A stretch of DNA of 64,000 nt, taken from assembly GCA_947259365.1 (NCBI GenBank), contig CAMYMC010000021.1, positions 59,034-123,033 on the forward strand, written 5' to 3'. Positions 28,406-61,014 of this stretch are shown one piece after another. A model generated the notes under the pieces. It did not search any database and had not been told where the DNA came from. It was given only the letters and a program-made list of their open reading frames with translations. Each line of letters starts with the position of its first letter. Positions within the stretch are counted from its first letter, which is position 1. The position numbers were made by a program, and so were the translations under genes. The DNA is from an uncultured Acidimicrobiaceae bacterium (GTDB lineage: Bacteria; Actinomycetota; Acidimicrobiia; Spongiisociales; UBA5794).

Positions 28406-28509
28406 GTCGTTCCCCATCCGAACGCGTTCCGGCAGCGAACGATTCCCGGGACCGGGCATCTCGCCCCGGCGGAGTGGCAAACTGAGGTGACCCGACCCGA
28501 GAGAGCCGC

Positions 28510-30957
28510 GTGCGAATCCTCATCGCAGACTCCTTCCCCGGGCCTCAGATCGAGCGTCTCGAGGCCATGGGCCACGACGTCACCGTCGATCCGGGCCGGG
28601 ATGCCGGCGCGCTGGCGGAGGTCGTCGCCGGCTACGAAGCCCTCGTCGTGCGCAGTACCAAGGTGACGGCGGAGACGATCGAGGCTGCCGACCGCCTCGC
28701 CCTCATCGTCCGGGCCGGCGCCGGGGTGAACACGATCGACACGAGGGCGGCTGCGGACCACGGCGTCATCGTGGCCAACACGCCTGGCAAGAACGCCGTC
28801 GCCGTCGCCGAGTTGACGATGGGTCTCATCATGGCGATCGACCGCAGCATCCCTGACAACGTGGCGGAGCTCCGGGCGGGGGTGTGGAACAAGAAGCGCT
28901 GGTCGGAGGCCGACGGACTCCACGGCAAGCGCCTCGGCATCGTCGGCATGGGTGCCATCGGGGCCGAGGTCGCTCGCCGGGCGCATGCGTTCGGGATGGA
29001 GATCGTCGTCGTCGACCGCCCGGGCCGGCGACCGGAAGTCGGCGCCCTCATCGAGGATCTCCGTTGCCGGCTCGTGCCCGATCTCCCCAGGCTGCTGGGG
29101 ACGTCCGACATCGTGACGTTTCACATCCCGGCATCCGGCAACACCGCCGGCATGATCAACCGAGAGATGCTCGGCCATCTGCGGCTGGGCACCGTCCTCA
29201 TCAACACGTCCCGGGGCGACATCATCGACGAGGAGGCGCTTCTCGAGGCGATCGAGGCCAAGGGCCTGCGCGTCGGCCTCGACGTGTACGCCGACGAACC
29301 CGGGGAGGGCTCGGGCACCTTCACCTCGGCGCTCGCCGCCCATCCCAACGTGTACGGGACCCACCACATCGGGGCGTCGACGAAGCAGGCGCAGCGGTCC
29401 ATCGCCGACGAAGTCGTCGCCATCATCGAGAGCTTCGGGCGCGGTGCGGTGAGAAACGCGGTGAACGTCGCTGCCGAGCCGGTCGGAGCGTCAGTCATCA
29501 CGGTGCGCCACTACGACAGGGTCGGCGTGCTCGCTGGGGTCCTCGAGGTGCTGCGTCGCGCCAATCTCAACGTGGAGCAGATGGAGAACACCGTATTCGC
29601 CGGGGCCAATGCGGCGAGCGCGTCGATCCACCTCTCTGCGCTTCCCGACTCGGCAACCGTCGAGGCCATCTCCGGGCTCGAGCACGTCATCGCGGTCTCC
29701 GTCGGCGCGGTCGGCGCCTCGAGCGCCCTCGTGCGGCCCTTCCCCGGGTTCCTGCCCCGGCCGGACATCGCCGACGAGGTAGCGGCGCCTCCGCTGTCGG
29801 TCATCACCGCGGATCGATACGACCGCCTCGTCGCCGACCACCCGCTGTCGATTCTCCACGTTCTCCGCACCGCGATCGACACCGCCGACGGGGTGCCGGA
29901 TCCGGCACTCGCCGACGCCCACGGCGCCGCGCACCTCGCCCGGCTCATCGACGATGGCGCCCTCTTGCCCCAGCCTGCTCCTGCCTACTACCTGTACCGG
30001 GTCGGCACGCAGCAGGGTTCCCACATCGGCGTCATCGCCGAGGTCGCCACGTCGGGGATCGGTGAAGGGACGGTGCGCCGACACGAGGGCACCAGGCGTG
30101 AAACCGAGGACCTCGTCCTGCGCCACCTCACGACCGTGCGTGCCCACACCGACCCGGTGGCGATGACGTATCGCACCGACCCGGGTCTCGCCGACGTCCT
30201 CACCGCCCGCTGCGCCGCCGAGACCCCCGTCCTCGACTTCGAGTCGGACGACGGGGTCCGTCACCAACTGTGGGTTGTCGCAGATGCGGCCGGTGTCAAC
30301 GAAATCGGGACCCGCCTCGCCATGGTCGAGACGCTGTACATCATCGACGGGCACCACCGTTCGGTGGCGGCGCGGAGGCTGGCTGCCACCGAGGCCTCCG
30401 AGAACCGGGGCCACACGGGAGCGGAGCCGTACAACTACTTCCCGGCGGTGCTCTTCGCCGAGGACCAGCTCGTGCTCGAGGGCTACCACCGGGCCCTCAC
30501 CGATCTCGGATCGATGACACCGCGCGAGTTCCTCGCTTCGATGCGAGACAGGTTCGACGTCGAGGACCTCGCCATACCGTGGGCCGAGGAGGCGCGGCCC
30601 CGCGAGCCGGGAGCGGTCGCCATGGTCGTCGACGGCGAGTGGTACCGGGTCACGCTGCCGAAGCCGCCCGCAGACGGCGACGTCTACGCCCGACTCGACG
30701 CCGTCGTGCTCCAGGAGCACATCCTCGGACCGCTGCTCGGCATCACCGAGCCCGCCACCGATCCGAGACTCCAGTACGTCCCCGGCCCCGCCGGCCTCGG
30801 CGAGTTCAGCCGACTCAGTGCGATCGTCGGATTCGCCCTCCACCCGCCGTCGACCGCCGAGGTGATGGCGGTCGCGGATGAGGGCCTCGTCATGCCGCCG
30901 AAGTCCACCTGGTTCGAGCCCAAGGTCCGCGCCGGGCTCGTCGTCCGGAAGTTCTGA
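28510..30957 (+). CDS. serA: D-3-phosphoglycerate dehydrogenase (SerA, with ACT domain) fused in-frame to a DUF1015 domain
   Basis: The first ~395 aa carry the Rossmann motif GIVGMGAIGAEVARRA, catalytic NTSRGDIIDEEAL / HIGASTKQAQ and an ACT domain. A DUF1015 module (LVRPFPGFLPRPD...YIIDGHHR...LQEHILGPLLGI) follows with no stop codon. The whole is one 815-aa ORF. Confidence 0.75.
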   Translation: MRILIADSFPGPQIERLEAMGHDVTVDPGRDAGALAEVVAGYEALVVRSTKVTAETIEAADRLALIVRAGAGVNTIDTRAAADHGVIVANTPGKNAVAVAELTMGLIMAIDRSIPDNVAELRAGVWNKKRWSEADGLHGKRLGIVGMGAIGAEVARRAHAFGMEIVVVDRPGRRPEVGALIEDLRCRLVPDLPRLLGTSDIVTFHIPASGNTAGMINREMLGHLRLGTVLINTSRGDIIDEEALLEAIEAKGLRVGLDVYADEPGEGSGTFTSALAAHPNVYGTHHIGASTKQAQRSIADEVVAIIESFGRGAVRNAVNVAAEPVGASVITVRHYDRVGVLAGVLEVLRRANLNVEQMENTVFAGANAASASIHLSALPDSATVEAISGLEHVIAVSVGAVGASSALVRPFPGFLPRPDIADEVAAPPLSVITADRYDRLVADHPLSILHVLRTAIDTADGVPDPALADAHGAAHLARLIDDGALLPQPAPAYYLYRVGTQQGSHIGVIAEVATSGIGEGTVRRHEGTRRETEDLVLRHLTTVRAHTDPVAMTYRTDPGLADVLTARCAAETPVLDFESDDGVRHQLWVVADAAGVNEIGTRLAMVETLYIIDGHHRSVAARRLAATEASENRGHTGAEPYNYFPAVLFAEDQLVLEGYHRALTDLGSMTPREFLASMRDRFDVEDLAIPWAEEARPREPGAVAMVVDGEWYRVTLPKPPADGDVYARLDAVVLQEHILGPLLGITEPATDPRLQYVPGPAGLGEFSRLSAIVGFALHPPSTAEVMAVADEGLVMPPKSTWFEPKVRAGLVVRKF

Positions 30958-36417: not shown

Positions 36418-37698
36418 TCACGACCTCTGTGATGCCCGCAGCGCCCTGCGGAGATCATCGACGAGATCGTCCACCGACTCGAGCCCGACGGAGAGGCGGA
36501 CGAGGTCTTCGCTGATGCCGGCGGCTTCGAGCTGGTCGACGCTCATCGTCGCATGCGTCGTCGAGGCGGGGTGGATGACGAGGGATTTGGCATCGCCGAC
36601 GTTGGCGAGGTGCGAGAAGACGGTGAGGGCCTCGATGAAGCGCCGGCCCGCCTCGCGGCCACCCTCGATGCCGAACGAGAAGATCGCCCCTGCTCCCTTC
36701 GGCAGGAGCTTGCGGGCAAGCTCGTGGTCGGGGTGAGCCGAGAGCTCCGGGTAGCTCACCCACGCCACCTCGTCTGCGGCATCGAGGAACGTCACGACGG
36801 CGCGCGTGTTGGCGACGTGGCGCTCCATCCGCACGGCGAGCGTCTCGATCCCCTGGAGGAGGTAGAAGGCGTTCGCCGGGCTCATCGACGCGCCGAAGTC
36901 ACGCAACCCCTCGACGCGGGCCCGGGTGATGAACGCCTGAGGGCCGAACTCCTCGGTGAAGGAGAGGCCGTGATACGACGGGTACGGCTCGGTGAGGGTG
37001 GGGAACCGGCCCGATGCTTCCCAATCGAACCGCCCGCCGTCGACGAGCACCCCACCGATGGCGACGCCGTGACCGCCGAGGAACTTCGTCGCCGAGTGGT
37101 ACACGAGATCAGCCCCCCAGTCGAACGGCCTGAAGAGGTACGGCGTGGCGAACGTGTTGTCGATGAGCAGCGGGACCCCGGCGTCATGTGAGATCGCGGC
37201 GACCTCGGGGATGTTCATGATCTCGAGCCCGGGGTTGCCGAGCGTCTCACCGACGACGAGGCGGGTCGCCGGCCCGATCGCATCCCGGATGGCGCCGAGG
37301 TCCCGGGCGGGGACGAGTGTCGTCTCGATGCCGAAGCGTGGCAGCGTCTGGACGAACAGGTTGTTGGTGCCGCCGTAGACGTTGCGCGACAGCACGACGT
37401 GGTCGCCCGCGTTGACGATCGTGGCAACGGCCAGCCAGAGCGCAGCCTGGCCCGATGCGGTCCCGACCGCCCCTACTCCGCCCTCGAGCGCGGCAACCCG
37501 CTCCTCGAGCACGGCGACGGTGGGATTCGAGATCCGTGTGTAGATGTGGCCCTGCCGCTCCAGGTTGAAGAGCCCTGCCGCGTGCTCGACGTCGTCGAAC
37601 AGGTACGACGTCGTCTGGTAGATGGGCACCGCTCTCGCCCCGAAGTCGGTGTCCGGGTGGTGCCCGGCGTGCAGGCTCAGCGTCTCGAAGTCGTACAC
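36418..37698 (-). CDS. metY: O-acetylhomoserine aminocarboxypropyltransferase (sulfhydrylase)
   Basis: Cys/Met-metabolism PLP enzyme motifs (IYTRISNPTV, HSATKFLGGHG). 426 aa. Confidence 0.9.
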   Translation of the reverse strand: MYDFETLSLHAGHHPDTDFGARAVPIYQTTSYLFDDVEHAAGLFNLERQGHIYTRISNPTVAVLEERVAALEGGVGAVGTASGQAALWLAVATIVNAGDHVVLSRNVYGGTNNLFVQTLPRFGIETTLVPARDLGAIRDAIGPATRLVVGETLGNPGLEIMNIPEVAAISHDAGVPLLIDNTFATPYLFRPFDWGADLVYHSATKFLGGHGVAIGGVLVDGGRFDWEASGRFPTLTEPYPSYHGLSFTEEFGPQAFITRARVEGLRDFGASMSPANAFYLLQGIETLAVRMERHVANTRAVVTFLDAADEVAWVSYPELSAHPDHELARKLLPKGAGAIFSFGIEGGREAGRRFIEALTVFSHLANVGDAKSLVIHPASTTHATMSVDQLEAAGISEDLVRLSVGLESVDDLVDDLRRALRASQRS

Positions 37699-37805
37699 CC
37701 GCTCCTCCCGGTCGTGGCGGCGCCGACCTTACCGGGGCCGTCGCGGCTTCGGCAGGTCCGGGCGTGCACCGGAGCCGCCGCAGCGGTGGCCCCGGTGCGT
37801 CGTCG

Positions 37806-46321: not shown

Positions 46322-46541
46322 GGTGGGGTCCCTTCTCGGCGGCCGATGCGGGCGGGGGAGGCCCGACAGCCCAGCATCGGGCACCGCGAGGTTCCGTGCC
46401 AGGGCCGAACGTCACCGGAGGGCCCGGCAGCGCCGACGCAGACTATTTGTATGATAAAGATGACAAATATCGGGTTGCGAGATCTCTGCAATTGTCATTA
46501 CGGTGAGCAATGGACAGTGCCCGAGCGATGGAGGAGGAGCG

Positions 46542-47723
<1,182 letters not shown>

Positions 47724-47764
47724 GGCGCCTATCTCCGCTGCCGGATCGGCGGGCGCGGGGCCGG

Positions 47765-48253
47765 TTGCGAGCGCCGGCCTACCATGGCCATACTCGCCCG
47801 GTGCGCTCCGACGCCGCGACGGTTGATGAGTACCTCGACGAGCTGCCCGATGATCGAAGGGGAGCCATCGAGAAGGTGCGCACTGTCGTGTTGGAGAACC
47901 TTCCTCCGGGTTACGAGGAGGCCATGGAGTGGGGGATGATCACGTATCAGGTCCCCCTCGAGACGCACCCCGACACCTACAACGGCAAGCCGCTGATGTA
48001 TGCGGGGCTCGCGTCGCAGAAGAACCACATGGCGCTGTACCTCACGGGGGTCTACGCCATGGAAGGAGAACGTATCCGTTTCGAGGAGGCGTTCGCCGCA
48101 TCGGGGAAGCGCCTCGACATGGGCAAGTCGTGCGTGCGGTTCAAGAGGCTCGACGACCTCCCTCTCGAAGTGATCGCAAGCACGATCGCAGCGGTGAGCG
48201 TGGAGTCCTTCGTCGCCCACGTCGAGTCGGTGCGGCGCTCTCGCCTGCGTTGA
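47765..48253 (+). CDS. DUF1801 (YdhG-like) domain protein
   Basis: TVDEYLDELPDDRRGAIEKVRTVV...KSCVRFKRLDDLPLEVI is a typical DUF1801 layout. Confidence 0.65.
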   Translation: MRAPAYHGHTRPVRSDAATVDEYLDELPDDRRGAIEKVRTVVLENLPPGYEEAMEWGMITYQVPLETHPDTYNGKPLMYAGLASQKNHMALYLTGVYAMEGERIRFEEAFAASGKRLDMGKSCVRFKRLDDLPLEVIASTIAAVSVESFVAHVESVRRSRLR

Positions 48254-48606
48254 AGGGAGGAATCGGCGTCGTTTCGTCGAGCTGAGCTACCCGCACACGG
48301 GGCCCGCACCGTCCACACAACAGCGCCTGTGCCCGCCTGCCGCGTCGCGTGGCAGATTCGTGAACGAGGGTGCGTCGTGGACGTGAGCCGAACGACCCGA
48401 GTGCCGTGTCGTGGCTGGGCGCTACCACCATGTGTGCCTCGACATCGGCGACCTCTCAGTGGGTAGAGTCCGGAATGTGAGTGAGGCGGACGAAGCATTT
48501 GCGACACGTGGATCGTATGCAGCTCGGGCCTCCCCAGTCAGTCGGCCTATCACCGAGGAGTGACTGGGCCAAACGCAACGAGACCGCGAATCATGGAGGG
48601 GAGCAC

Positions 48607-49983
48607 ATGAAGAGAACGAAGTGGCTGATCGCACTCACCGCGCTGGTGTTGGTGGCAGCTGCCTGCGGCGATGATGAGGGCACAACAGCGGATACGGTCG
48701 TGGTGACTTCAATCGTCACTGAAGTCGTGACAGAAACCTCGATCGTCACCGAGACCTCAGTCGTCACCGAGACGATGGACCGAGAGCCCATCACGATCAT
48801 GGCCTCCTGGGGTGGAGATGAGCAGGCCGGATTCTTCGAGGTGCTCAACGCTTTCACCGCTGAAACAGGGCTGCCGTGGGTTTACGAAGGTCAGCGTGAG
48901 CTGGTCACGGTGCTGCAGACCCGCATCGCCGGTGGCAACGCGCCTGATCTGGCGATGATTCCTCGCCCCGGTTTCCTGGCATCGTTCGTGGCAGACGGCG
49001 TCGTTACACCGCTGTGTTGCGGCGGCGACGACATCATCGACGAAGACACCCTGACCGCGAACTACGGTTCCGGTGCGCTCGGGTTCGGCACGATCGACGG
49101 CACCGTGTACGGGCTCCTCGCAAAGGCCAACTCGAAGAGCACTTTCTGGTACAAGCCGGCTTCGTTTGCTGAACTCGGAGTCGAGCCCCCCGAGACGTGG
49201 ACTGAACTCCTGGCGATCGTTGACGCCTACGTCGCGGCTGGCAAGACGCCGCTGTCCCTGGGCGGTCAGGACGGTTGGACGCTGACTGACTGGTTCGAGA
49301 ACATATACATTCGAACCGCAGGGCCGGAAGCGTACGGCCAGCTCTTCGAGACGGGTGAGATCCAGTGGACCGATGCCTCGGTCGTGGAGGCCATGGAACG
49401 CTTCCAGGAGATCATCGCTCCGACCGCGGACAAGCTCGCAGGCGGAGCCGCAGGTGCCCTCTCAACAGGCTTCATCGACGCTTTCGACGTCGTGCTCAAC
49501 GGAGATGCCGAGATGTACTACGAGGGTGGGTTCATGGGCTCATTCGCAGCGCAGAACTTCCCCGACCTCGTACCGGGTGAGGACTACGCGTTCTTCACCT
49601 TCCCGGAGATCAACCCGCAGTACGGCAAGCCGATCGTAGGCGGGGGTGACCTTGCGGCGGTCTTCAACGACACCCCAGAGGTCAGAGAACTCATGAAGTT
49701 TCTTGCCGGCAAGGAAGCCAACGAGGTTTGGGCTTCCGCCGACAAGGGGGCTGTGATTTCGCCGAACAATCAAGTCTCGCTCGATATCTACGCGCCGCTC
49801 ACCCGTCTCGAAGCTGAAGGAGTCCTCGGTGCCTCCATCTTCGTGTTCGACGGGTCCGACCTGGCAGACCCGGCAGTCGGCGGAGACGCCATGTTCACCG
49901 GCCTTCAGGACTTCATCGACAACCCAGATGACATCGACGGCGTCCTTGGATTCATCGAATCGGTAGCCGCTGGGGTCAGATAG
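48607..49983 (+). CDS. carbohydrate ABC transporter substrate-binding lipoprotein
   Basis: GGAGGGGAG RBS before ATG 48607. Lipobox LVAAACGDD. Type-1 SBP fold features. Unusual VVTSIVTEVVTETSIVTETSVVTET repeat linker. Lower GC3 than neighbouring genes. Confidence 0.85.
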   Translation: MKRTKWLIALTALVLVAAACGDDEGTTADTVVVTSIVTEVVTETSIVTETSVVTETMDREPITIMASWGGDEQAGFFEVLNAFTAETGLPWVYEGQRELVTVLQTRIAGGNAPDLAMIPRPGFLASFVADGVVTPLCCGGDDIIDEDTLTANYGSGALGFGTIDGTVYGLLAKANSKSTFWYKPASFAELGVEPPETWTELLAIVDAYVAAGKTPLSLGGQDGWTLTDWFENIYIRTAGPEAYGQLFETGEIQWTDASVVEAMERFQEIIAPTADKLAGGAAGALSTGFIDAFDVVLNGDAEMYYEGGFMGSFAAQNFPDLVPGEDYAFFTFPEINPQYGKPIVGGGDLAAVFNDTPEVRELMKFLAGKEANEVWASADKGAVISPNNQVSLDIYAPLTRLEAEGVLGASIFVFDGSDLADPAVGGDAMFTGLQDFIDNPDDIDGVLGFIESVAAGVR

Positions 49984-49999
49984 CGAAGCTTGCTGGATT

Positions 50000-50029
50000 G
50001 GTGGGGCCGCCGATACCGGCGGCCCCACC
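50000..50029 (+). other. perfect 12-bp stem-loop between the SBP and first permease genes
   Basis: GGTGGGGCCGCC-gatacc-GGCGGCCCCACC, with no U-tract. Typical of intercistronic mRNA-stabilising hairpins after ABC binding-protein genes. Confidence 0.5.
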
Positions 50030-50038
50030 TGCATACGA

Positions 50039-51019
50039 GTGGAGAGGGGAGGCGCGGAGCTGGCTGACAAGGCGATCGAAGAGTCTGTGGGACCAGTCGC
50101 GCCTCTGACGCCCTTGGCGAGCGGCAGGGGGGCTTTCAACTGGCGCCCATGGGCGTGGGCGTTCCCGGCTCTGTTCCTGCTGGGTGTGTTCCTGCTGTGG
50201 CCGGTGATACGCACGATCCAGATCAGCTTCTACGACGGCACCGTCATCAATCCCACACAGGAATTCGTCGGACTCGACAACTACGACCGATTGCTCACCG
50301 ATGACCCGTTCTTCATCCGCCGGGAGCTGCCGCCATGGTCGGCGCTGTTCAACAGTGCCCTATGGGTGGTGCTGTTCACGTCCGGCGTCGTGGGAATGGG
50401 GCTGCTGGTCGCGGTTCTAGCCGACAGGGTCCGCTACGAGAAGTTGGCCAAGGCCATCATCTTCTTGCCGTTGGTGATCTCGTTCACCGCTGCGTCTGTT
50501 GTGTTCCGTCTGGTCTATGCCAGCAATCCCGACATCGGGCTGATCAATGCAGTGGTCGATGGAGTCGGTTTGGAGCCAATCGCCTTCCTCGGGGAGGCCA
50601 ATTGGGTGAACTTTGCCATCATTGCCGCGGGCATCTGGGTGTGGACCTCTCTCGCGATGACCATCCTGGCCGCCGCCTACAAATCGCTTCCCTCCACCGT
50701 CTTGGAAGCAGCTGCGATCGACGGCAGCAACGCCTGGCAGACCTTTTGGCGGGTTTCGGTGCCCATGATGATGGGCCCGATCATCGTCGTCTCCGTCACC
50801 ATGATCATCAACGCCCTCAAGGCCATCGATCTCGTGCTGGTGATGACGGCTGGCGGACCCCGAGGGAGCAGCCGGATAGTGGGTTACACGGTCTTCTTGG
50901 AGATCTTCAACAACAACAAGGCGGGGTACGGCAGTGCGGCCGCTGTTCTGCTGCTCGTGTTGATGATCCCAATGATGTGGTACCAGCTGCGGCAGATTCG
51001 CCAAGGGGCGGAACGATGA
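50039..51019 (+). CDS. carbohydrate ABC transporter permease (MalF/UgpA-type)
   Basis: Six TM segments and an EAA-like loop (LEAAAIDGSNAWQTFWRVSVPM). Confidence 0.85.
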   Translation: MERGGAELADKAIEESVGPVAPLTPLASGRGAFNWRPWAWAFPALFLLGVFLLWPVIRTIQISFYDGTVINPTQEFVGLDNYDRLLTDDPFFIRRELPPWSALFNSALWVVLFTSGVVGMGLLVAVLADRVRYEKLAKAIIFLPLVISFTAASVVFRLVYASNPDIGLINAVVDGVGLEPIAFLGEANWVNFAIIAAGIWVWTSLAMTILAAAYKSLPSTVLEAAAIDGSNAWQTFWRVSVPMMMGPIIVVSVTMIINALKAIDLVLVMTAGGPRGSSRIVGYTVFLEIFNNNKAGYGSAAAVLLLVLMIPMMWYQLRQIRQGAER

Positions 51020-51906
51020 CCACCCAGGAATCGCCCCCTAGAACGCTCGGCGCCCAGCTTACGAGGGTGGTTAGCAAGGGAGGCATCCACTTCGTTCTCG
51101 TCGGTGTGGCGCTGTTGTGGCTGGTGCCGTCCCTCGGCCTTTTCGTGACGTCGCTCCGGACAAGGGCAGCCAGCTCGCAGTCGGGATGGTGGACGGCCAT
51201 CACCGACTTCGACTTCACACTCGAGAACTACGACACTGTCCTCCAGTCGGGTGACCTTCCTCCCCCCGGGTTCGCCGACAACTTCATCAACACCTTCATC
51301 ATTGCTATCCCGTCGACCCTTCTCCCGATCATCATTGCGGCGGTAGCGGCCTACGCCTTTGCCTGGATGGAGTTCAAGGGACGTGACTGGATCTTCCTGG
51401 GCGTAGTGACGCTACTGGTGGTGCCGCTGCAGGTGACCTGGGTGCCGGTTCTGAAGATCTTCAATCAGTTCAACTTGACTGGGGAGTTCTGGGGTCTGTG
51501 GCTGGCTCACACGGCCTACGGACTGCCGTTCGCCATCTTCCTGTTACGGAACTTCTTCGCTGATCTACCCAAGGAGCTCTTCGAATCGGCCCGCATGGAC
51601 GGAGCCTCCGAGACAAAGGTCTTCCTCCGCATAGTCGTGCCGCTGTCGATTCCCGCGCTCGCTTCGCTGGCGATCTTCCAGTTCGTGTGGGTGTGGAACG
51701 ATCTGATGAACGCCCTGATCTTCCTTCAGGACGTGGACAAGTTCCCACTCACAGTCGGGATCAACAATCTGCTCGGCCAGTACGGCAACGAGTGGCACCT
51801 CCTTGCTTCGGGAGCATTCATCAGCATGGTGGTGCCGTTGGTAGTGTTCTTTGCCTTGCAGCGCTTCTTCGTGCGGGGCATCACCGCGGGAGCGGTGAAG
51901 GGTTAG
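51016..51906 (+). CDS. carbohydrate ABC transporter permease (MalG/UgpE-type)
   Basis: ATGA overlap with the upstream permease. EAA loop (ESARMDGASETKVFLRIVVPL). Confidence 0.85.
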   Translation: MTTQESPPRTLGAQLTRVVSKGGIHFVLVGVALLWLVPSLGLFVTSLRTRAASSQSGWWTAITDFDFTLENYDTVLQSGDLPPPGFADNFINTFIIAIPSTLLPIIIAAVAAYAFAWMEFKGRDWIFLGVVTLLVVPLQVTWVPVLKIFNQFNLTGEFWGLWLAHTAYGLPFAIFLLRNFFADLPKELFESARMDGASETKVFLRIVVPLSIPALASLAIFQFVWVWNDLMNALIFLQDVDKFPLTVGINNLLGQYGNEWHLLASGAFISMVVPLVVFFALQRFFVRGITAGAVKG

Positions 51907-51909
51907 GCG

Positions 51910-52848
51910 GTGGCTGCGGCCCCCCTCAAGGCCCTCCTCGGATGGCTGGTCGTGGTTCTCGTGGGTGTGATAGCCGCTCTCGTGTGGGTGCGACCAGGCA
52001 GTGCATCCGTGATCGAAGTGCCCCGTGACCATCCGACGATTTCCCAGGCCCTGTCTGCAGCGGCGGATGGGGCCACGATCCGGCTGGACCAGGGGGTGTA
52101 CGAGGAGTCACTCCTCATCGACAAGCCCGTGACCCTGGAGAGCAAGCGGGACGGAGCCGCGGAGGTGCGAGGCTTCGCTGGCGCACCGACGATCAGCGTA
52201 CTGAACACCTCCGACGTCACAATCCGACTTCTCACGATCAGTGGAGGCGAAGTCGGCGTGCTGGTCCGCAACAGCAAGGACGTGACGATCACCGAGAACA
52301 CGATCTCTGACAACCACATGCGAGGTGTCCGAGTCGTCTTCGGTTCCGCTCGGATATCCGAGAACCTGATTGCCGATACCTCGGGCCGCGGAGCGAAAGG
52401 GATTCACATCGCAAACGCAACGAGCTGGCCGGAGTCCACGATCTCGGGCAACGTCGTAGAACGCAGCGGTGCCGAGGGGATCCTCACGAACCTCGCTCAC
52501 GTGACTATCGAGGACAACGTGGTGCGAGACAACGACGGAGGGGGCATCGCCATCAGCGAGATGTCGGTTGCGTCAGTTCTGGGTAACACCGTGACCGGGA
52601 ACGCTGAGACAGGCATTCTCGTTCTGGACATGTCGACAGCGAGCGTCGACGACAACGATATCGAAGTGGCGGTGGGCGACGGTATTCGGCTCGAGTTCCA
52701 CTCGGAAGCTCAGCTCTATGGCAACCACATTCTTAGCGAGAGCGGATGTGGCATCGTCGTCGGTGGGGCAAGTTTCATCGCCGGTGGCAGGAACAGACTT
52801 CTCGGCGCAACTCAGGTGTGTGGTCAGTTTCCCGACCTCGTCCGCTGA
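51910..52848 (+). CDS. right-handed parallel beta-helix repeat protein with N-terminal signal anchor
   Basis: N-terminal TM helix (LLGWLVVVLVGVIAALVWV). Repeated NTISDN / ENLIAD / ISGNVV / EDNVVRDN / GNTVTGN turns are typical of pectin-lyase-fold / NosD-like beta-helices. Confidence 0.7.
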   Translation: MAAAPLKALLGWLVVVLVGVIAALVWVRPGSASVIEVPRDHPTISQALSAAADGATIRLDQGVYEESLLIDKPVTLESKRDGAAEVRGFAGAPTISVLNTSDVTIRLLTISGGEVGVLVRNSKDVTITENTISDNHMRGVRVVFGSARISENLIADTSGRGAKGIHIANATSWPESTISGNVVERSGAEGILTNLAHVTIEDNVVRDNDGGGIAISEMSVASVLGNTVTGNAETGILVLDMSTASVDDNDIEVAVGDGIRLEFHSEAQLYGNHILSESGCGIVVGGASFIAGGRNRLLGATQVCGQFPDLVR

Positions 52849-52972
52849 CGGGCGGCCCACGGCTCGTTGAGTCGGTGCTTGGATCATCGGTCTGTGTGCC
52901 AGTCGGCGGTCAGCAACGGCGCCAAGGGCTGCCGGGAACGCTTTCGGTACGAGCGATCCGCTCTCACACTGG

Positions 52973-53992
52973 TCAATGGGCGGGCGGACCAGTCGATTCC
53001 CGGACAATGAGATCAACCGGGACCGTGTGATGCGCGACCGGCGTTGTTGGCTCGGCGATGGAGGCTAGGAGCAGCTCGGCTGCCTCTTCACCGATGCGTC
53101 TCGCGGGCTGGCACATCGTGGTCAGCCCGAAGGACTCCGACAGGTCATGGCCGTCGAAGCCGATGATGGAGACGTCGTTGGGAACAGACACTCCCAGCGC
53201 TCGGGCCCTTCCCATGGCCCCCATCGCCGTCTCGTCCGACAAACAGAACATCGCGGTGGGGTGGCCGGGGAGGTCGAGGAGACGGTCGAAACCCTCAGCG
53301 CCACCCTCGACCGAGAGCTCGCAGTCGATGTCGAGCGCAGGGTCCGGGTCGATCCCGGCGTCGCGGAGCGCGGCGCTGTATCCCGCCTGCCGCGCTGTCA
53401 ACGCCGGGGACTCGATGAGGTGAATGTCCTGTGTGCCCAATAGCCCTATCCGGCGGTGTCCCAGCGCGAGGAGGTGCCGGACGCTCTCGATCGCTGCGGT
53501 CACGTTGTCGATCGCCAGCGAGTTCACCGAGTCGACGTGCTCTCCGATGGCGACGAGGGTGATCCTCGACTCGAGGAGGCGCGCGAGCTGGGACTCCTCC
53601 GGCGAGAAGTCGACGAGCAGCATCCCGTCGACCCTGGTCTGCAGCGAGGCGGATCGCGCCGCGAACCGGTCGCGCTGCTCCGCTGTTTCGGCTGCATAGA
53701 CCGTGAGGTCGTAGCCGGCATCGGAGAGCACTCGCTCCACGCCGGCGAGGACCCGGCCGGTGTACCACACGTCGAAATACGGCGCGGCGACGCCGACCGT
53801 CATCGTCTTGCCCGACGCCAGCCACGAGGCGGCGGTGTGCGGTTGGTAGCCGAGGCGATCGGCGACCGTGACGACCTTCGCCCGCGTCTCCTCGGCGACA
53901 TTCGCCTTTCCCCGCAGGGCTCTGCTCACGGTGGCGACCGACACGCCCGACTGGCGCGCCACGTCTTGGATCGTCGCCCGATGGCCGCTCAC
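52973..53992 (-). CDS. LacI-family transcriptional regulator
   Basis: N-terminal HTH (ATIQDVARQSGVSVATVSRALRG) and a periplasmic-binding-protein-like sugar-binding core. Confidence 0.85.
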   Translation of the reverse strand: MSGHRATIQDVARQSGVSVATVSRALRGKANVAEETRAKVVTVADRLGYQPHTAASWLASGKTMTVGVAAPYFDVWYTGRVLAGVERVLSDAGYDLTVYAAETAEQRDRFAARSASLQTRVDGMLLVDFSPEESQLARLLESRITLVAIGEHVDSVNSLAIDNVTAAIESVRHLLALGHRRIGLLGTQDIHLIESPALTARQAGYSAALRDAGIDPDPALDIDCELSVEGGAEGFDRLLDLPGHPTAMFCLSDETAMGAMGRARALGVSVPNDVSIIGFDGHDLSESFGLTTMCQPARRIGEEAAELLLASIAEPTTPVAHHTVPVDLIVRESTGPPAH

Positions 53993-54660: not shown

Positions 54661-55506
54661 TCACGCCGGCGTTCGGGCGACGACCTCGCCGTGGAGGAAG
54701 GCGAACCAGCCCGAGCGATGACTCGCCCAGCGATCCCAGTCCGCCGCCATTGCGGCGAGGTCATCCCTGGTGGCGAGTTCCAGCTCGATGGCGAGTTCCC
54801 CGAGCCGGCCGTCGAGGAGTCTTGACGTCCACGAGTCTGCCCACCACCGGCGGCGGGCCGGCTCGGCGAACGTCCAGGTCGAGCTCGATGTGGTGACGGG
54901 GTCCGTGAGGCCGGCGGCGAAGAACCACTGCGGGAGAAGCCGCCCGGCGTCGGCGCACACTCCGGTCCGGCGCGCCACCTCTCGATACAGCTCTCGCCAC
55001 CGCTCGATGCCCTCGAACTGCGGCGAGTGGACCATGGTGCCGTAGTCGGCGTCGCGGGCTGCAACGAGGCCGCCGGGGACGACGACACGACGCATCTCGG
55101 CGAGGGCGGCGACGGGCTCCCGAAGGTGCTGGAGGAGCTGGTGGGCATGCGCGGCGTCGAAGGTGGCGTCGCCGTGGGGGAGCGCGTACGCGTTCGCCTG
55201 CTCGAAGATGACGGTGCCGAGGTGCAATGCGGCGGCCCGCTCCGCGGCCGTGCGCAGCACGCCGGCGTCGGCGTCGACCCCGACGACCGTGCCGGGAGCA
55301 ACGGCCGCCGCCAGCTCGCAGGTGATGCTGCCGGGCCCGCACCCGACGTCGACGAGCCGCATGCCGCGGTTCAGATGGGGGGAGAAGTACTCGGCCGAGT
55401 CGGCGATCGTGCGCTGGCCGTGGGCGAACACGACGGCCACGTCGTGACCGTGGCCGTAGGTCTCGGCGCCCGGCATGACCGGGAGTGTACGCGCCTCGGG
55501 GGCCAT
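54661..55506 (-). CDS. class I SAM-dependent methyltransferase
   Basis: Motif I VDVGCGPGS and motif post-I VGVDAD. Confidence 0.75.
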   Translation of the reverse strand: MAPEARTLPVMPGAETYGHGHDVAVVFAHGQRTIADSAEYFSPHLNRGMRLVDVGCGPGSITCELAAAVAPGTVVGVDADAGVLRTAAERAAALHLGTVIFEQANAYALPHGDATFDAAHAHQLLQHLREPVAALAEMRRVVVPGGLVAARDADYGTMVHSPQFEGIERWRELYREVARRTGVCADAGRLLPQWFFAAGLTDPVTTSSSTWTFAEPARRRWWADSWTSRLLDGRLGELAIELELATRDDLAAMAADWDRWASHRSGWFAFLHGEVVARTPA

Positions 55507-55631
55507 GGATCGGGCCGGGCTCCCTCACGGGCCGAGCACCTCGATCTCCCGCGGTGTGCTCGCGGTGCGGGGCGGCCGCTCGGCCATCCACGGGCGTCAA
55601 GCGCCGCCGGCTGCGTACCGATGATGTTCAG

Positions 55632-55659
55632 GGGAGGGAACGCAGCAGTGTTCCCTCCC
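55632..55659 (+). other. perfect 10-bp stem / 8-nt loop hairpin upstream of the glycosylglycerate cluster
   Basis: GGGAGGGAAC-gcagcagt-GTTCCCTCCC lies ~90 nt upstream of the GpgS-like start. No U-tract. Confidence 0.45.
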
Positions 55660-55750
55660 GATGGTACGGAAACAGCGGACAAGCAGGTAGCCTGAGGCTG
55701 CTCATTTGGCCAGGAAGCGTGGGTAACCCGACAAACCACCCATCATCGTT

Positions 55751-56896
55751 GTGAGCCTCGTCATCTTCCCCTTCAAACAGGAACGCCCCGACGTCCTCAT
55801 CGCGAACGTGCGGAAGGCGTCCCGGCACGCTCGCGTGTCGGAGGTACTCGGCATCGGCTACGAGAACGAGGAGACCTACCGCGCCCTCGAGACGGCGGCG
55901 CCCGCGATCGCGGGCGAGACCGGCGCCGAGATCAACCTCGCACTCCAGCGGCGCATCGGCAGCCTGCGGCCGGGGAAGGGCGATGCGATGAACACGGGAC
56001 TCGACTACTTCCTCGCGTCGTCCCACGACCGCCTCCACTTCTACGACGCCGACATCGTCAGCTTCGGTGAGGGCTGGATCGACAAGGCGGAGACCGCGGC
56101 AGACCGCGGCTACGACGTCGTCCGCCACTACTTCCCCCGGGCCCGGACCGACGCAATGATCACCTGGATGATCACGAGGACGGGGTTCTCTCTCCTGTGG
56201 CCGGACTCCGAACTCGTCCACATCGAGCAGCCCCTCGGGGGCGAACTGTTGCTCACCCGAGCGGCGGCGAAGGTCCTCGTCGACGAACCCCGGGTGCGGG
56301 CGCAGAGCGACTGGGGCATCGACACCGTCTACACGTTCGTCCTGACGAGAGCCGGGCTCCCGCTGGCCGAGGTCTACATCCCGGAGGGCAAGATCCACAA
56401 GCTCTACGGGGCGCTCTCCGACCTGAGGACGATGCTGAGGGAGTGCTTCGCCGCGGTGCAGAGCCTCCGTGGGCTCGACATCGGCTCCGGCTACGGCCAC
56501 GAGATCGAGCGCCCCGGCCCGGTGCCGGCAGCGGTGGCGAGCCAGAACGGCTACAACCTCGAGACCACGCTGCGGCTTCTCACCGAGAACTGGACCCAAG
56601 GCCAGGAGGAGTTGCTCGAGCTGTTTCCCGGCCACGTCCGGGACGGGTTGCTCGAAGCCCGGACCTACCCCCGCTTCGGGTACATGGACGACGAGACGTG
56701 GTACGAGTCCTATCGCATCCTGCTCGACCATTTCGATCCGGCCGGCGAAGACTGGGCCGAGCTCCTCTTCAAGCTCTGGGTCGCCCGGGTGCTGCATTAC
56801 ACCGCGAACGTCGCCCTGCGCGGATTCGACTTCTCCTCCCGCTACCTCCACGACATGGTGGTGGCCTACGCCAAGCGATCGGCACGGGCCGGCTGA
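55751..56896 (+). CDS. glucosyl-3-phosphoglycerate synthase-like retaining glycosyltransferase (GT81-like)
   Basis: RPGKGDAMNTGL and FYDADIVSF (DxD) correspond to the GpgS motifs RPGKGEALWRSL / FIDSDLI as I remember them. GT-A fold with C-terminal extension. Confidence 0.7.
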   Translation: MSLVIFPFKQERPDVLIANVRKASRHARVSEVLGIGYENEETYRALETAAPAIAGETGAEINLALQRRIGSLRPGKGDAMNTGLDYFLASSHDRLHFYDADIVSFGEGWIDKAETAADRGYDVVRHYFPRARTDAMITWMITRTGFSLLWPDSELVHIEQPLGGELLLTRAAAKVLVDEPRVRAQSDWGIDTVYTFVLTRAGLPLAEVYIPEGKIHKLYGALSDLRTMLRECFAAVQSLRGLDIGSGYGHEIERPGPVPAAVASQNGYNLETTLRLLTENWTQGQEELLELFPGHVRDGLLEARTYPRFGYMDDETWYESYRILLDHFDPAGEDWAELLFKLWVARVLHYTANVALRGFDFSSRYLHDMVVAYAKRSARAG

Positions 56897-56969
56897 GCAC
56901 GCCGGGCGAGCGCGCGACCTCACACGTCCGGCGGATCTTCGATATCCTCAAAGGACCTCCCCGCCCGGC

Positions 56970-58271
56970 GTGACGGAGGCGAGTGTGCGTATCGAGGTAC
57001 CGATCAACTCGGAGCGGTTGGGCGCCGTCCACCTCTTCGACACCGTCGATGTCTACGAGCTCGATTCCGGTCTCGAGAAGAGCGTGAGCGAGGTCGATCT
57101 CGGCTGGCACCAGGTCCGACACGTCCCGTTCGACGAGATCAACGAGATCGAGCGGCGGATGGCCATCGTCGTGCCCTGCAAGGACGAGCGGCTCAAGCTC
57201 CTCAAGGGCGTGCTCTCGGGCATCCCGCACGACTGTCTCGTCATCCTCGTCTCCAACAGCGCAGGGGTCCCGGTCGATCGTTTCGAGATGGAGCGGGAGG
57301 CGCTCGAGGCGTTCTGCCGTCTTCTCGACCGGAGCGCCATCATCGTCCACCAGCGTGACTCGGGTCTCGGTGCGGCGTTCGTCGAGGCGGGCATGCCCGA
57401 GCTCGTCGACGACGAGGGCAGGGTCCGTCACGGCAAGGGCGAGGGAATGATGGTGGGTGTGGCCCTCGCCAAGCTCACGGGCCGGGACATCGTCGGGTTC
57501 ATCGATGCCGACAACTACGTGCCCGGAGCCGTCCACGAGTACGTCAAGTCCTACGCCGCGGGATTCGCCGTCAGCCCGTCGCCTCACACCATGGTGCGGA
57601 TCTCCTGGAGCTCGAAGCCGAAGATCCAGGGCGGCGAGCTGTTCTTCAACCGCTGGGGCCGCACCTCACAGGTCACGAACCGGTTCCTCAACCTGCTGCT
57701 CTCCGAGATCACCGGGTTCGGGACCGAGATCATCACGACCGGCAACTCCGGCGAGCATGCGATCTGTCTCGACCTCGCCCTCCTCATGAACTTCGGGAGC
57801 GGCTTCTCGGTAGAGCCCTACGAGTACCTGAACCTCTTCGAGCTCTTCGGGGGGCTTGCGGAGTCGCCGCACCCAGAGGTCATGCGACAGGGGGTGCGGG
57901 TGTACCAGATCGAGACGCGCAACCCCCACTTCCACGAGGACAAGGGTGCCGATCACCTCCAGGAAATGCGGCTCCAGGCCCTCAATGCTCTCTACCAGTC
58001 GCCGATCTGCGGTCCGCGGACCCAAGAGGAGATCAGCGCATTCTTGGGAGGACAGGGGACGTCGCCGGCGGATGATGCGACCGCGGTCACCAGCTACCCG
58101 GCGCTCGCCAACCTCGATTGGAACCGGTTCCTGGAGCGCCTCGCCTCGGTACCGACGTTCGAGCAGTTCGAGTTCATCGAGTCGGCGCACGTCGTCACGC
58201 GCGCCCCGATCTCATTCCCCTCGGTGGAGGGGGATGATGAGGGCCATCGCCGGGAGGCGCGACCCGCTTGA
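56970..58271 (+). CDS. mpgS: mannosyl-3-phosphoglycerate synthase (GT55 family)
   Basis: VVPCKDERLKLLKGVLSGIPHDCLVILVSNS, RHGKGEGMMVGVALAKL, GFIDADNYVPGAVHEYVKSYAAGF and RNPHFHEDKG match archaeal/Thermus MpgS blocks as I recall them. GTG start could be 56970 or 56982. Confidence 0.8.
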   Translation: MTEASVRIEVPINSERLGAVHLFDTVDVYELDSGLEKSVSEVDLGWHQVRHVPFDEINEIERRMAIVVPCKDERLKLLKGVLSGIPHDCLVILVSNSAGVPVDRFEMEREALEAFCRLLDRSAIIVHQRDSGLGAAFVEAGMPELVDDEGRVRHGKGEGMMVGVALAKLTGRDIVGFIDADNYVPGAVHEYVKSYAAGFAVSPSPHTMVRISWSSKPKIQGGELFFNRWGRTSQVTNRFLNLLLSEITGFGTEIITTGNSGEHAICLDLALLMNFGSGFSVEPYEYLNLFELFGGLAESPHPEVMRQGVRVYQIETRNPHFHEDKGADHLQEMRLQALNALYQSPICGPRTQEEISAFLGGQGTSPADDATAVTSYPALANLDWNRFLERLASVPTFEQFEFIESAHVVTRAPISFPSVEGDDEGHRREARPA

Positions 58272-59071
58272 GCAGCGGCCGACCCGTACTCCTGTTCACC
58301 GACCTCGACGGGAGCCTGCTCGGGGAGCACGACTACCAGCCGGCAGAGGCCGCGTCCGCGGTCGCGGCACTGCGATCGAGCGGCGTCGGCGTCGTCTTCT
58401 GCTCGGCGAAGACGGAGACCGAACAACTGGCGATCCGCCACCGACTGGGGGTGACGGGGCCCTACATCGTCGAGAACGGGGGAGCCCTGCACGTCGATGG
58501 GAACACGACCCGCTTTGGCGTGTCGTATGCCCGGGTGTGCGCCGGCCTGGAGGACGCTGCACGGGCTGCGGGCGTCGTCGTGCGCGGGTACGCGTCGATG
58601 ACCGCGGATGAGGTGTCGGCCGTCACCGGGCTCGACCCGGATGCGGCGGGGAGGGCGAAAGACCGCCGCTATAGCGAGACGTTCGTCATCGAGGAGGGCT
58701 CGTCGTTCTCTCCTGCCGCCCTCGCTGCGGAGCTGCAGGCGCGAGGCCTCCGGCTCGTGCGGGGCTCCAGGTTCTGGACGGCCCAGGGCGACCACGACAA
58801 AGGAACCGCGGTGCGGGCCCTGCTCGATCTCTCCAGGGGCCAGGACGCTCCACGTACGTACGCAATCGGCGACGGGCCCAACGACGCCGCGATGCTGGCT
58901 GCGGTCGACGTGCCGATGCTCGTGAAGCGCCGAGACGGGACGTGGACCGACGTCGACGTCCCCGGCGTCGTGAAGATCGACGGGGTGGGACCGGCGGGCT
59001 GGGCCAAGGGTGCGGCCACCATCGTGCGTGCTCTCGGCCTCGTGAGCGGACCCCGTCAGATCCCCCGGTAG
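58268..59071 (+). CDS. mpgP: mannosyl-3-phosphoglycerate phosphatase (HAD-IIB, YedP family)
   Basis: HAD motif I (LLFTDLDGSLL), motif II (FCSAKT) and motif IV (IGDGPNDAAML). There is a 4-nt overlap with mpgS. Confidence 0.8.
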   Translation: MSSGRPVLLFTDLDGSLLGEHDYQPAEAASAVAALRSSGVGVVFCSAKTETEQLAIRHRLGVTGPYIVENGGALHVDGNTTRFGVSYARVCAGLEDAARAAGVVVRGYASMTADEVSAVTGLDPDAAGRAKDRRYSETFVIEEGSSFSPAALAAELQARGLRLVRGSRFWTAQGDHDKGTAVRALLDLSRGQDAPRTYAIGDGPNDAAMLAAVDVPMLVKRRDGTWTDVDVPGVVKIDGVGPAGWAKGAATIVRALGLVSGPRQIPR

Positions 59072-59224: not shown

Positions 59225-60028
59225 TCAGACGGCGCGTCGATACGCCCGCACCGCCAGCGGGACGAACACGAGGAGGAGGACGAGGATCCACAGGCCGGCC
59301 TGCCACAGGCGTGGCGTGAGCGTGGTTCCGAGGATGAGCGCCCGGATGGCGTCGACGATGATGGTGATGGGGTTGACCTTGGCGAACGCCTGTAGCCAAC
59401 CGGGAAAGCCGGAGATCGGCACGAACGCGGAGCTGGCGAACGTGAGCGGGAAGACCCAGACGAACGTCGCCGCCTGGGCGCTCTCGACGTCGCGCACGGA
59501 CAGCCCGATGGCAGCTGAGATCCAGCTGAACGCAAAGCCGAACGCGACCGCGAGCAGCAAGGCACCGAGCGCATTGATCGGCCCGGCCTGGAAGCGAAAG
59601 CCGACGATGTACCCGACGACGGTCATGAGCACGACGACGAAGGCATTGCGGGCGCCGTCGGAGAGCGTCCTCCCGACGAGCACCGCAGACCGGCTCATCG
59701 GCAACGAGCGGAATCGGTCGACGAGGCCCTTGTTCATGTCCTCGGCGAGGCCCACCCCCGTCTGGGTGGAGCCGAAGACGGCTGTCTGGGCGAAGATCCC
59801 CGCCATGAGGAAGTTCGTGTAGTTGACGCCCGGGACGTTGATCGCGCCGCCGAAGACGTAGACGAACAACAGGACGAACATCACGGGCTGGATCGTCGAG
59901 AAGACGAGCAGCGTGGGAACCCTCGTGTATTTGAGCAGGTTTCGCCTCGTCATCACGAAGGCATCCGATGCCAGCCGGCCCCTCGGGCGCAGAGCCGGCT
60001 GCGTCGTCGTTTCCGTGCCTGCCGTCAT
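59225..60028 (-). CDS. ABC-2 type transporter permease
   Basis: Six TM helices and an ABC2_membrane-like layout. Overlaps the ATPase stop. Confidence 0.85.
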   Translation of the reverse strand: MTAGTETTTQPALRPRGRLASDAFVMTRRNLLKYTRVPTLLVFSTIQPVMFVLLFVYVFGGAINVPGVNYTNFLMAGIFAQTAVFGSTQTGVGLAEDMNKGLVDRFRSLPMSRSAVLVGRTLSDGARNAFVVVLMTVVGYIVGFRFQAGPINALGALLLAVAFGFAFSWISAAIGLSVRDVESAQAATFVWVFPLTFASSAFVPISGFPGWLQAFAKVNPITIIVDAIRALILGTTLTPRLWQAGLWILVLLLVFVPLAVRAYRRAV

Positions 60029-61014
60029 GTCGTCCTCCGTCCTGGTCGGCCACGGTCGGGTACCGGCGGCTCCTCCGTGTCGACGCTGGTGCCGGTGAGG
60101 GTGAGGAACACGTCGTCGAGCGTGGGTCTGCGGATCGCGAGATCGCGAAGCCGGATCCCGGCCGAGTCGAGCCGGCGCACCGTCTCGGTGATGACACCGA
60201 CGGGGCTGGAGACGGGGATCCGCACTCGGCCCTCGACCTCGTCGATGCGGGGTGGTTCGGTTCCAACACCGCTCACAGCGTCGGCCGCCGCACCGACCTG
60301 GGCATGATCGGCGACCTCGAGTTCGATGACGTCGCCGCCGATCCGCTCCTTGAGTTCATCTGCGGTCCCTTCTGCGATCACCCGGCCTCTGTCGATCACG
60401 CCGATGCGATCGGCGAGCCGGTCGGCTTCCTCGAGGTACTGGGTCGTCAGCAGCAGCGTGGTACCGCCGTCCACGAGGCCTTCGATGAACTCCCACAGGC
60501 CGATGCGGCTCCGGATGTCGAGACCGGTTGTGGGTTCGTCGAGGAAGAGCACCTCGGGCTCGGCGACGAGGCTGGCGGCGAGGTCGAGGCGTCTTCGCAT
60601 CCCTCCGGAGTAGGTGCGGACTTGGCGGTTGGCGGCGTCGCTGAGCCCGAAACGATCGAGAATGTCCCCGGCGCGACGTCTCGCCTGGGCGGCGCGCAAC
60701 CCGTAGAGCCGGCCGACCATCTCGAGGTTCTCGAATCCGGTGAGGATGTCGTCGACGGCTGCGTACTGGCCGGCAAGGCCGATGGCCGCGCGGAGCTGAG
60801 CGGCGTCGCGTACCACGTCGAAGCCGGCCACGCGTGCTCGTCCACGGTCCGGTTTCAGCAGCGTGGTGAGGATGCGCACCGCCGTGGTCTTGCCGGCCCC
60901 GTTTGGCCCGAGCAGCCCGTAGACGGTGCCGGCTTCGACCTCGAGATCGATGCCGTCGAGGGCGCAGACGTCGCCGAATTGCTTGGCCAGGCGCGACACT
61001 TCGATGATGGGCAC
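60025..61014 (-). CDS. ABC transporter ATP-binding protein (DrrA-like)
   Basis: Walker [10 protein letters not shown], signature YSGGMRRRL and Walker [12 protein letters not shown], plus a C-terminal extension. Confidence 0.85.

Follow-up and report, generated by a model that had tools for sequence, protein, structure and literature searches.

A probable dual-route mannosylglycerate locus with adjacent mgs, mpgS and mpgP genes in an uncultured Acidimicrobiia bacterium

The stretch of DNA analysed here, referred to below as the window, comprises 64,000 nucleotides (nt) of contig CAMYMC010000021.1 from an uncultured Acidimicrobiaceae bacterium (assembly GCA_947259365.1). Between positions 55751 and 59071 of the window, three open reading frames (ORFs) in all were found on the plus strand. 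They were identified as mgs, mpgS and mpgP, and the genes for the single-step synthesis of alpha-mannosylglycerate (MG) by mannosylglycerate synthase (MGS) and for its two-step synthesis by MpgS and MpgP thus lie together within 3.3 kb. The initial annotation of this DNA had described a glycosylglycerate, that is, compatible-solute, biosynthetic cluster, and the family matches, which are far beyond chance, agree with that description. The motifs it had quoted were also found in the translations, which contain RPGKGDA and YDADI in gene 1, HGKGEGM, GFIDADNYVPGAV..YAAGF and NPHFHEDKG in gene 2, and FTDLDGS in gene 3.

The first gene, mgs (55751-56896, plus strand, start codon GTG), encodes a protein of 381 amino acids (aa) that was assigned to the MGS of glycosyltransferase family GT78 by Pfam and by its match to the structure of the Rhodothermus marinus enzyme. 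The Pfam models MGS_GT (PF21969; 364 bits, 4e-109, whole model) and MGS_C (PF21967; 125 bits, 2.5e-36) were both matched, the cut-off being 27 bits for each, and the C-terminal helical domain specific to MGS is present. The R. marinus MGS (PDB 2bo4/2y4k) was matched end to end over residues 1-377 with E = 1e-145, and a global alignment over the full length gave 58% identity with the crystallised protein. The first glycosyltransferase had initially been annotated as GT81-like. Its RPGKGDA and DAD motifs are indeed superficially similar to those of GpgS, and the GT81 GpgS and GT78 MGS enzymes are close structural neighbours (root-mean-square deviation of 2.2 A, 23% identity; PMC2581804). However, the NCBIfam GpgS equivalog model (NF010496) gave only a weak and partial match (residues 53-174, E = 0.0014) with a score of 17.8 bits against a cut-off of 262, and a GpgS identity was rejected. 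Judged by its sequence, gene 1 is a GT78 MGS and not a GT81 enzyme, an outcome that the initial annotation had itself named as contrary to its proposal.

The active site of the R. marinus enzyme has been described in detail. E11 contacts the ribose and Q66 the guanine, an ion-pair network links K76, D100 and D192, the metal is bound by D102 and H217, the glycerate carboxylate is contacted by I138 (main chain) and T139 (side chain), the carbonyl of L163 points at the anomeric carbon, and W189 and Y220 line the site (PMC2581804). In the alignment, all of these residues were kept in gene 1, where E11, Q66, K76, D99, D101, I137, T138, D191 and H216 correspond to E11, Q66, K76, D100, D102, I138, T139, D192 and H217 of R. 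marinus. At the position of the guanine-binding Q66, GpgS has Arg101 (PMC2581804). Among 84 MGS homologues, the DXD motif, the metal-ligand His and the D100-K76-D192 network were invariant, and the residues named in the structural study were either invariant or deviated in three sequences at most. Position 218, beside the metal-binding His, is Lys in gene 1 and Arg in R. marinus and is variable across the family. MGS transfers mannose from GDP-mannose to unphosphorylated D-glycerate, giving mannosylglycerate in a single step (PMC1224877), and free D-glycerate rather than 3-phosphoglycerate is the predicted acceptor of gene 1. The suggestion that the cluster contains two 3-phosphoglycerate-type glycosyltransferases is therefore not retained.

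The second gene, mpgS (56985-58271, plus strand, 428 aa), encodes a GT55 mannosyl-3-phosphoglycerate synthase (MpgS), the enzyme for the first step of the two-step route. A longer ORF (56469-58271, 600 aa) was considered for this gene, and the family match within it begins only at residue ~175. The start was placed at the GTG codon at 56985 because this codon is preceded by GGAGG at the proper distance and because a database protein of 428 aa (P0001), which starts at the same GTG codon, is 100% identical to the product. The Pfam model Osmo_MPGsynth (PF09488) was matched with 481 bits (3e-144, model positions 2-379 of 381), and the NCBIfam MpgS equivalog TIGR02460 with 444.7 bits, which passes the cut-off of 351.2. 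The MpgS structures of Pyrococcus horikoshii and Thermus thermophilus were matched with E = 1e-100. A C-terminal tail of ~44 aa extends past the family model, which ends at residue 556 of the 600-aa ORF.

The third gene, mpgP (58268-59071, plus strand, 267 aa), belongs to the HAD-IIB mannosyl-3-phosphoglycerate phosphatase (MpgP) family and would provide the second step. It overlaps mpgS by 4 nt (TTG start at 58268, TGA stop of mpgS at 58269-58271) and has a GGGAGG ribosome-binding site 10 nt 5' of its TTG start; the same 4-nt overlap was called in a related metagenome contig, L081. The MPGP subfamily model TIGR01486 was matched with 202.6 bits (6.5e-60; cut-off 164.75, passed), and the T. thermophilus MpgP (3ztw) with E = 1e-25, the HAD motifs DxD/DLDG, AKT, DKG and GDxxND being aligned with those of 3ztw. 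Gene 2 was thus assigned as MpgS and gene 3 as its MpgP, with catalysis predicted for both; the initial annotation had read these two genes and their overlap in the same way.

A spacer of 88 nt (56897-56984, plus strand) separates the two synthase genes, which are thus neighbours that do not abut. Its 3' half (56935-56984; 250-298 in L081) is identical at ~48 of 51 bases between the window and L081, in contrast to the 5' half with its many substitutions; only these two sequences were compared, so the conservation is weak evidence. The conserved half contains a -10-like hexamer, TATCCT, together with the GGAGG ribosome-binding site of mpgS, and the spacer may act as an internal promoter or as a 5' leader for mpgS-mpgP. 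No terminator-like site was found in it by a consensus scan. An 11-nt long-range inverted repeat bracketing the spacer was dropped, since its first arm is not kept in L081.

Upstream of mgs, a divergent intergenic region of 244 nt (55507-55750) separates the gene from that of a SAM methyltransferase and is the presumed promoter/operator region of mgs. It contains a perfect 10-bp inverted repeat with an 8-nt loop at 55632-55659 (GGGAGGGAAC-GCAGCAGT-GTTCCCTCCC), which is followed by no T-run on either strand and may function as an operator or form a leader hairpin. A scan for the sigma-70 consensus gave no match in 55507-55750, and no RNA family was found there with Rfam. The sole Rfam result around the cluster was an IRES_Bip match inside mgs (56131-56278; 17.4 bits against a gathering score of 40, E = 0.04), which was dismissed as chance-level, and the idea of a structured RNA or riboswitch near the cluster was dropped with it.

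To evaluate the linkage of the three genes elsewhere, a scan centred on MGS with one genome per species and a scan of metagenome contigs centred on MpgS were used, each of which returned 80 loci. In the former, the MGS proteins were 41-61% identical to that of the window. MGS homologues were found to be common in metagenome-assembled genomes (MAGs) of Acidimicrobiia and occurred also in Bipolaricaulota, Caldisericota, Rhodothermus, Desulfohalobiaceae, Pirellulaceae and others, the taxa of linked loci being those given in contig titles. In seven of the 80 genome loci mpgS and mpgP adjoin mgs on the opposite strand; divergent trios were found in Pirellulaceae (L008) and Desulfohalobiaceae (L013, L017, L018), and convergent ones in Sumerlaeota (L026) and Elusimicrobia (L039). 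All three genes lie on one strand in five of the 80 metagenome loci, in the order mgs-mpgS-mpgP, as in the window, in L082 (the same contig as L081) and in the order mpgS-mpgP-mgs in L083, L086, L087 and L089; four linked loci are high-GC metagenome contigs.

Altogether, 12 distinct loci with the trio were obtained, the window included (11 other contigs, or 10 apart from L081). They show four architectures, namely co-directional in two orders, divergent and convergent, and their GC contents range from 0.36 to 0.71. An all-against-all ORF comparison revealed no gene other than mgs, mpgS and mpgP that every linked locus has. As the trio is divergent or convergent in other phyla, co-transcription of mgs with mpgS-mpgP is not needed for the linkage. 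Our literature search gave no account of a physical linkage of mgs with mpgS/mpgP, but the search was incomplete and an earlier description is possible.

The MpgS proteins of the window and L081 are 90% identical. The ratio of nonsynonymous to synonymous substitution rates (dN/dS) against L081 was 0.30 for the C-terminus of MGS, 0.12 for MpgS and 0.30 for MpgP, which indicates purifying selection on all three genes. In a neighbour-joining tree, the window MGS fell in an R. marinus-like clade with the proteins of Desulfohalobiaceae, Pirellulaceae and the four metagenome trios, and this clade holds most of the linked copies. A second, large clade of MGS proteins less than 50% identical (41-48%, among L030-L080) is unlinked to mpgS/mpgP and comes from MAGs titled Acidimicrobiia, Acidobacteriota or Actinomycetota. 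The catalytic residues of this unlinked clade are invariant or nearly so, and no mpgS/mpgP was present within 8 kb. The literature on GT78 MGS centres on thermophiles, yet the enzyme seems to be much commoner among mesophilic uncultured bacteria than that literature suggests.

In 73 of the 80 MGS genome loci, and in most MpgS loci, no partner route was found within the fetched stretch. At the metagenome MpgS loci (L083-L161), MpgP was searched for by tblastn with the window MpgP as query (E <= 1e-3), and a homologue lies at most 600 nt downstream in six of the 59 loci having at least 1.5 kb of downstream sequence; mgs is also present in five of these six. In the remaining metagenome loci the phosphatase would be encoded elsewhere or be too divergent to detect. 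Some of the metagenome MpgS loci have a low GC content and may be archaeal. A different context was observed in Bipolaricaulota/Acetothermia-type MAGs (L001, L003, L004, L005, L007, L009), where MGS ends an apparent ATP-binding cassette (ABC) transporter operon. In L001 (3883-14670) this operon encodes a binding protein, two permeases and a MalK-like ATPase, with MGS last, and is followed by a GH130-like protein (beta-1,2-mannobiose phosphorylase-related, below the cut-off) and then a GT4 protein. This context hints that mannoside uptake or phosphorolysis is linked to MG synthesis in these bacteria.

Taken together, these data led us to the reading that the locus encodes both known routes to MG side by side on one strand, to which we assign a probability of roughly 0.8. 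What the sequence data themselves show is the identity of the genes, the conservation of their catalytic residues, their linkage and the purifying selection on them. By the first route, MGS would move mannose from GDP-mannose straight onto D-glycerate. By the second, MpgS would move mannose from GDP-mannose onto 3-phosphoglycerate, and the MpgP that appears translationally coupled to it would strip the phosphate to give MG. The same product would thus be reached via different three-carbon acceptors, in line with the established chemistry of the two pathways, both of which yield alpha-mannosylglycerate (PMC1224877, PMC8490865). By analogy with R. marinus, the dual routes most likely allow MG synthesis to respond to more than one condition or signal, and the 88-nt spacer may permit mpgS-mpgP to be expressed apart from mgs.

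Several points weigh against this reading. The enzyme activities, the product, the co-transcription or differential regulation and the physiological role are what we infer from the genes. Gene 3 scored 179.1 bits with the strict equivalog model TIGR02461 (osmo_MPG_phos), below its cut-off of 244.35; its MpgP function is nevertheless supported by the 4-nt overlap with mpgS and by the fact that all linked loci have the two genes side by side. The neighbourhood of the cluster yielded no source of D-glycerate. The consensus scans, which are poorly suited to an actinobacterium with 70% GC, gave neither promoter nor terminator, and the trio may form one transcript or two. In two Rhodothermus MAG loci (L011 and L016), mgs stands without mpgS in the stretch covered, so that Rhodothermus, the organism of the analogy, lacks the linkage. 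In addition, the R. marinus MGS is reported to be promiscuous in vitro, accepting other GDP- and UDP-sugars as well as lactate and glycolate (Flint 2005; Nielsen 2011), which leaves MG as the probable, not the established, in vivo product of gene 1.

This reported breadth in donors and acceptors is the starting point of the alternative that survives best, namely that gene 1 is a true GT78 enzyme with another product, such as glucosylglycerate or mannosyl-lactate, and that two solutes come from the cluster. A plant GT78 homologue reportedly makes both MG and glucosylglycerate, which was counted in favour of this alternative, as was the Lys at the variable position 218. Nevertheless, we consider it improbable. 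Every residue reported as a contact of GDP, of the metal or of the glycerate carboxylate is the same as in the R. marinus MGS and invariant or nearly so in the family, with no visible specificity switch, and a shared product better explains why it is mpgS-mpgP to which mgs is repeatedly linked.

Somewhat less probable still is the explanation that the adjacency is functionally meaningless, one route being a redundant copy that was acquired recently or is decaying. On paper, either route makes the other redundant, the partner route is missing from most of the fetched loci as given above, and the GC content of the 56-58 kb segment is slightly lower (0.658) than that of the window (~70%, ~0.70). 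However, the three ORFs are intact with their catalytic residues kept, and the dN/dS values of 0.12-0.30 were obtained against a relative with the same gene order. The GC content at third codon positions (0.92 for mgs, 0.82 for mpgS and 0.86 for mpgP) is within the range of the host genes, which makes a recent import unlikely. It is also hard to obtain by chance a trio that occurs in four architectures on taxonomically distant contigs and consists of the sole genes that these contigs share.

The last alternative, in which gene 1 is a GT81 GpgS-type enzyme and the cluster makes either glucosylglycerate beside MG or, sequentially, mannosylglucosylglycerate as in Petrotoga and Rhodopirellula, is hardly credible and is refuted at the sequence level by the GpgS score, both MGS-specific Pfam domains, the full-length identity to the R. 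marinus MGS and Q66. Both products had been proposed in the initial annotation, and both proposals fall because the family assignment of gene 1 was wrong: parallel synthesis loses its premise with a GT78 MGS, and the Petrotoga-type route needs GpgS and MggA, of which the former is not encoded by gene 1 while gene 2 passes the MpgS cut-off, which argues against MggA, although no dedicated MggA search was made.

The dual-route reading can be carried further, to a conserved, horizontally shuffled 'dual-entry' module that many uncultured phyla, most of them non-thermophilic, would share and whose two routes would be coupled in function and not merely redundant. We regard this extension as rather doubtful. 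In such a module, MGS may use free D-glycerate salvaged from MG turnover or from another pathway and MpgS may use glycolytic 3-phosphoglycerate, so that MG synthesis would be buffered against carbon status, with separate control via the spacer or via divergent promoters. If this were true, the dual pathway would be a design principle shared by MG producers in general and not something peculiar to R. marinus.

The surroundings of the cluster were also analysed. A housekeeping gene of the window, which encodes MetY (36418-37728), has its closest named relatives solely in MAGs of Acidimicrobiia (89%, 77% and 76% identity), and its 100% match is on the contig that also carries P0001; the host was accordingly placed in Acidimicrobiia. 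Upstream, a sugar ABC transporter block of the CUT1 type (46503-53992) encodes a MalK-like ATPase, a DUF1801 protein, a substrate-binding protein and two permeases, together with a secreted beta-helix (NosD-like) protein and a LacI regulator. The GC content of this block is 0.61-0.66, clearly below the ~0.70 of the remaining window, and it may be an acquired sugar-uptake island; the best model match, a weak one, was to the NgcE chitobiose binding protein. A tie between this transporter and MGS was considered and rejected, as the substrate-binding protein is unrelated to the Bipolaricaulota ones (E = 0.21) and no neighbour recurs. A DUF4332 protein gene lies between this block and the S-adenosylmethionine (SAM) methyltransferase gene, which starts at 55506 on the minus strand and is divergent from mgs. 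Downstream and convergent to the cluster is an exporter pair of an ABC-2 permease and a DrrA-like ATPase (59225-61014), followed by genes for a DUF3179 protein, a lipoprotein and a DsbA-like protein. This pair is absent from the otherwise syntenic L081 (2412-2441), where mpgP is followed directly by the DUF3179 gene, and is thus an insertion or deletion difference between the two contigs. Apart from the close relative L081, no neighbour of the cluster recurred beside MGS or MpgS in the other fetched loci, and the neighbours were not counted as part of the system. Further away, a single open frame at 28486-30957 contains a D-2-hydroxyacid dehydrogenase of the phosphoglycerate-dehydrogenase type (265 bits, below the 454-bit cut-off) and a DUF1015 part and may be two genes or a fusion; at 25 kb from the cluster it is too far to be called a glycerate source.

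As a solute that stabilises proteins, mannosylglycerate has been well studied and has biotechnological uses (PMC8490865, PMC6240254). The enzymes, both pathways and their coexistence in R. marinus were already known, and the locus reveals no new enzyme, solute or mechanism. The physical linkage, the example from Acidimicrobiia and the recurrence in several phyla with differing gene orders are modestly new. To our knowledge, R. marinus is the sole organism in which both routes have been studied, and the pairing has been treated as special to it. The loci described here indicate that the pairing is recurrent and clustered, in uncultured Acidimicrobiia and on contigs titled as Planctomycetes-type bacteria (Pirellulaceae), Desulfohalobiaceae, Sumerlaeota and Elusimicrobia. 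The trio could also serve as a compact three-gene cassette for heterologous production of MG from glycerate or 3-phosphoglycerate and as a natural system for asking why cells retain two routes to one solute.

A comparison with known systems places the locus closest to R. marinus, in which two MG routes coexist (Martins 1999 and Borges 2004, as cited in PMC3736172, PMC1224877 and PMC11730185) and, according to PMC11730185 and a passage of PMC3736172 that cites Borges 2004, are differently regulated for thermal and osmotic stress. The window contains the same two routes with GT78 MGS, GT55 MpgS and a HAD-IIB phosphatase, and its MGS belongs to the same clade with an identical active site. Unlike in R. 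marinus, the three genes are contiguous; in L011 and L016, the 8 kb before mgs and the 3.4-3.6 kb after it contain no mpgS/mpgP. The hosts also differ, R. marinus being a thermophilic member of Rhodothermota and the host of the window an uncultured member of Acidimicrobiia with 70% GC. The heat-versus-salt regulation is known for R. marinus and only assumed, by analogy, for the window locus.

Genes 2 and 3 resemble the mpgS-mpgP operon of P. horikoshii and T. thermophilus (2zu7, 2wvk, 3ztw, 1wzc), in which the synthase is followed directly by the phosphatase. They matched the proteins of these organisms with E = 1e-100 and 1e-25, respectively, with all motif blocks aligned. The differences from this canonical operon are that mgs is attached upstream in the window, that the window MpgS carries the C-terminal tail described above and that its MpgP falls below the TIGR02461 score.

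The GpgS/GpgP and MggA/MggB systems likewise combine a retaining GT-A glycosyltransferase with a phosphatase for glycosylglycerate synthesis, and GT81 and GT78 share a fold (PMC2581804); the mannosylglucosylglycerate pathway of GpgS, MggA and MggB is found in Petrotoga mobilis and Rhodopirellula baltica (PMC3736172). In contrast to the GpgS systems, the window cluster is without a GT81 enzyme, and the predicted acceptor of gene 1 is glycerate. Finally, MgsD of Dehalococcoides mccartyi is a bifunctional fusion of MpgS and MpgP (PMC8490865) with the same two-step chemistry, and the bifunctional model PRK14502 matched gene 2 and gene 3 separately. Unlike in the MgsD fusion, the synthase and phosphatase of the window are separate proteins whose genes overlap by 4 nt, and both are far below the 762-bit cut-off of PRK14502.

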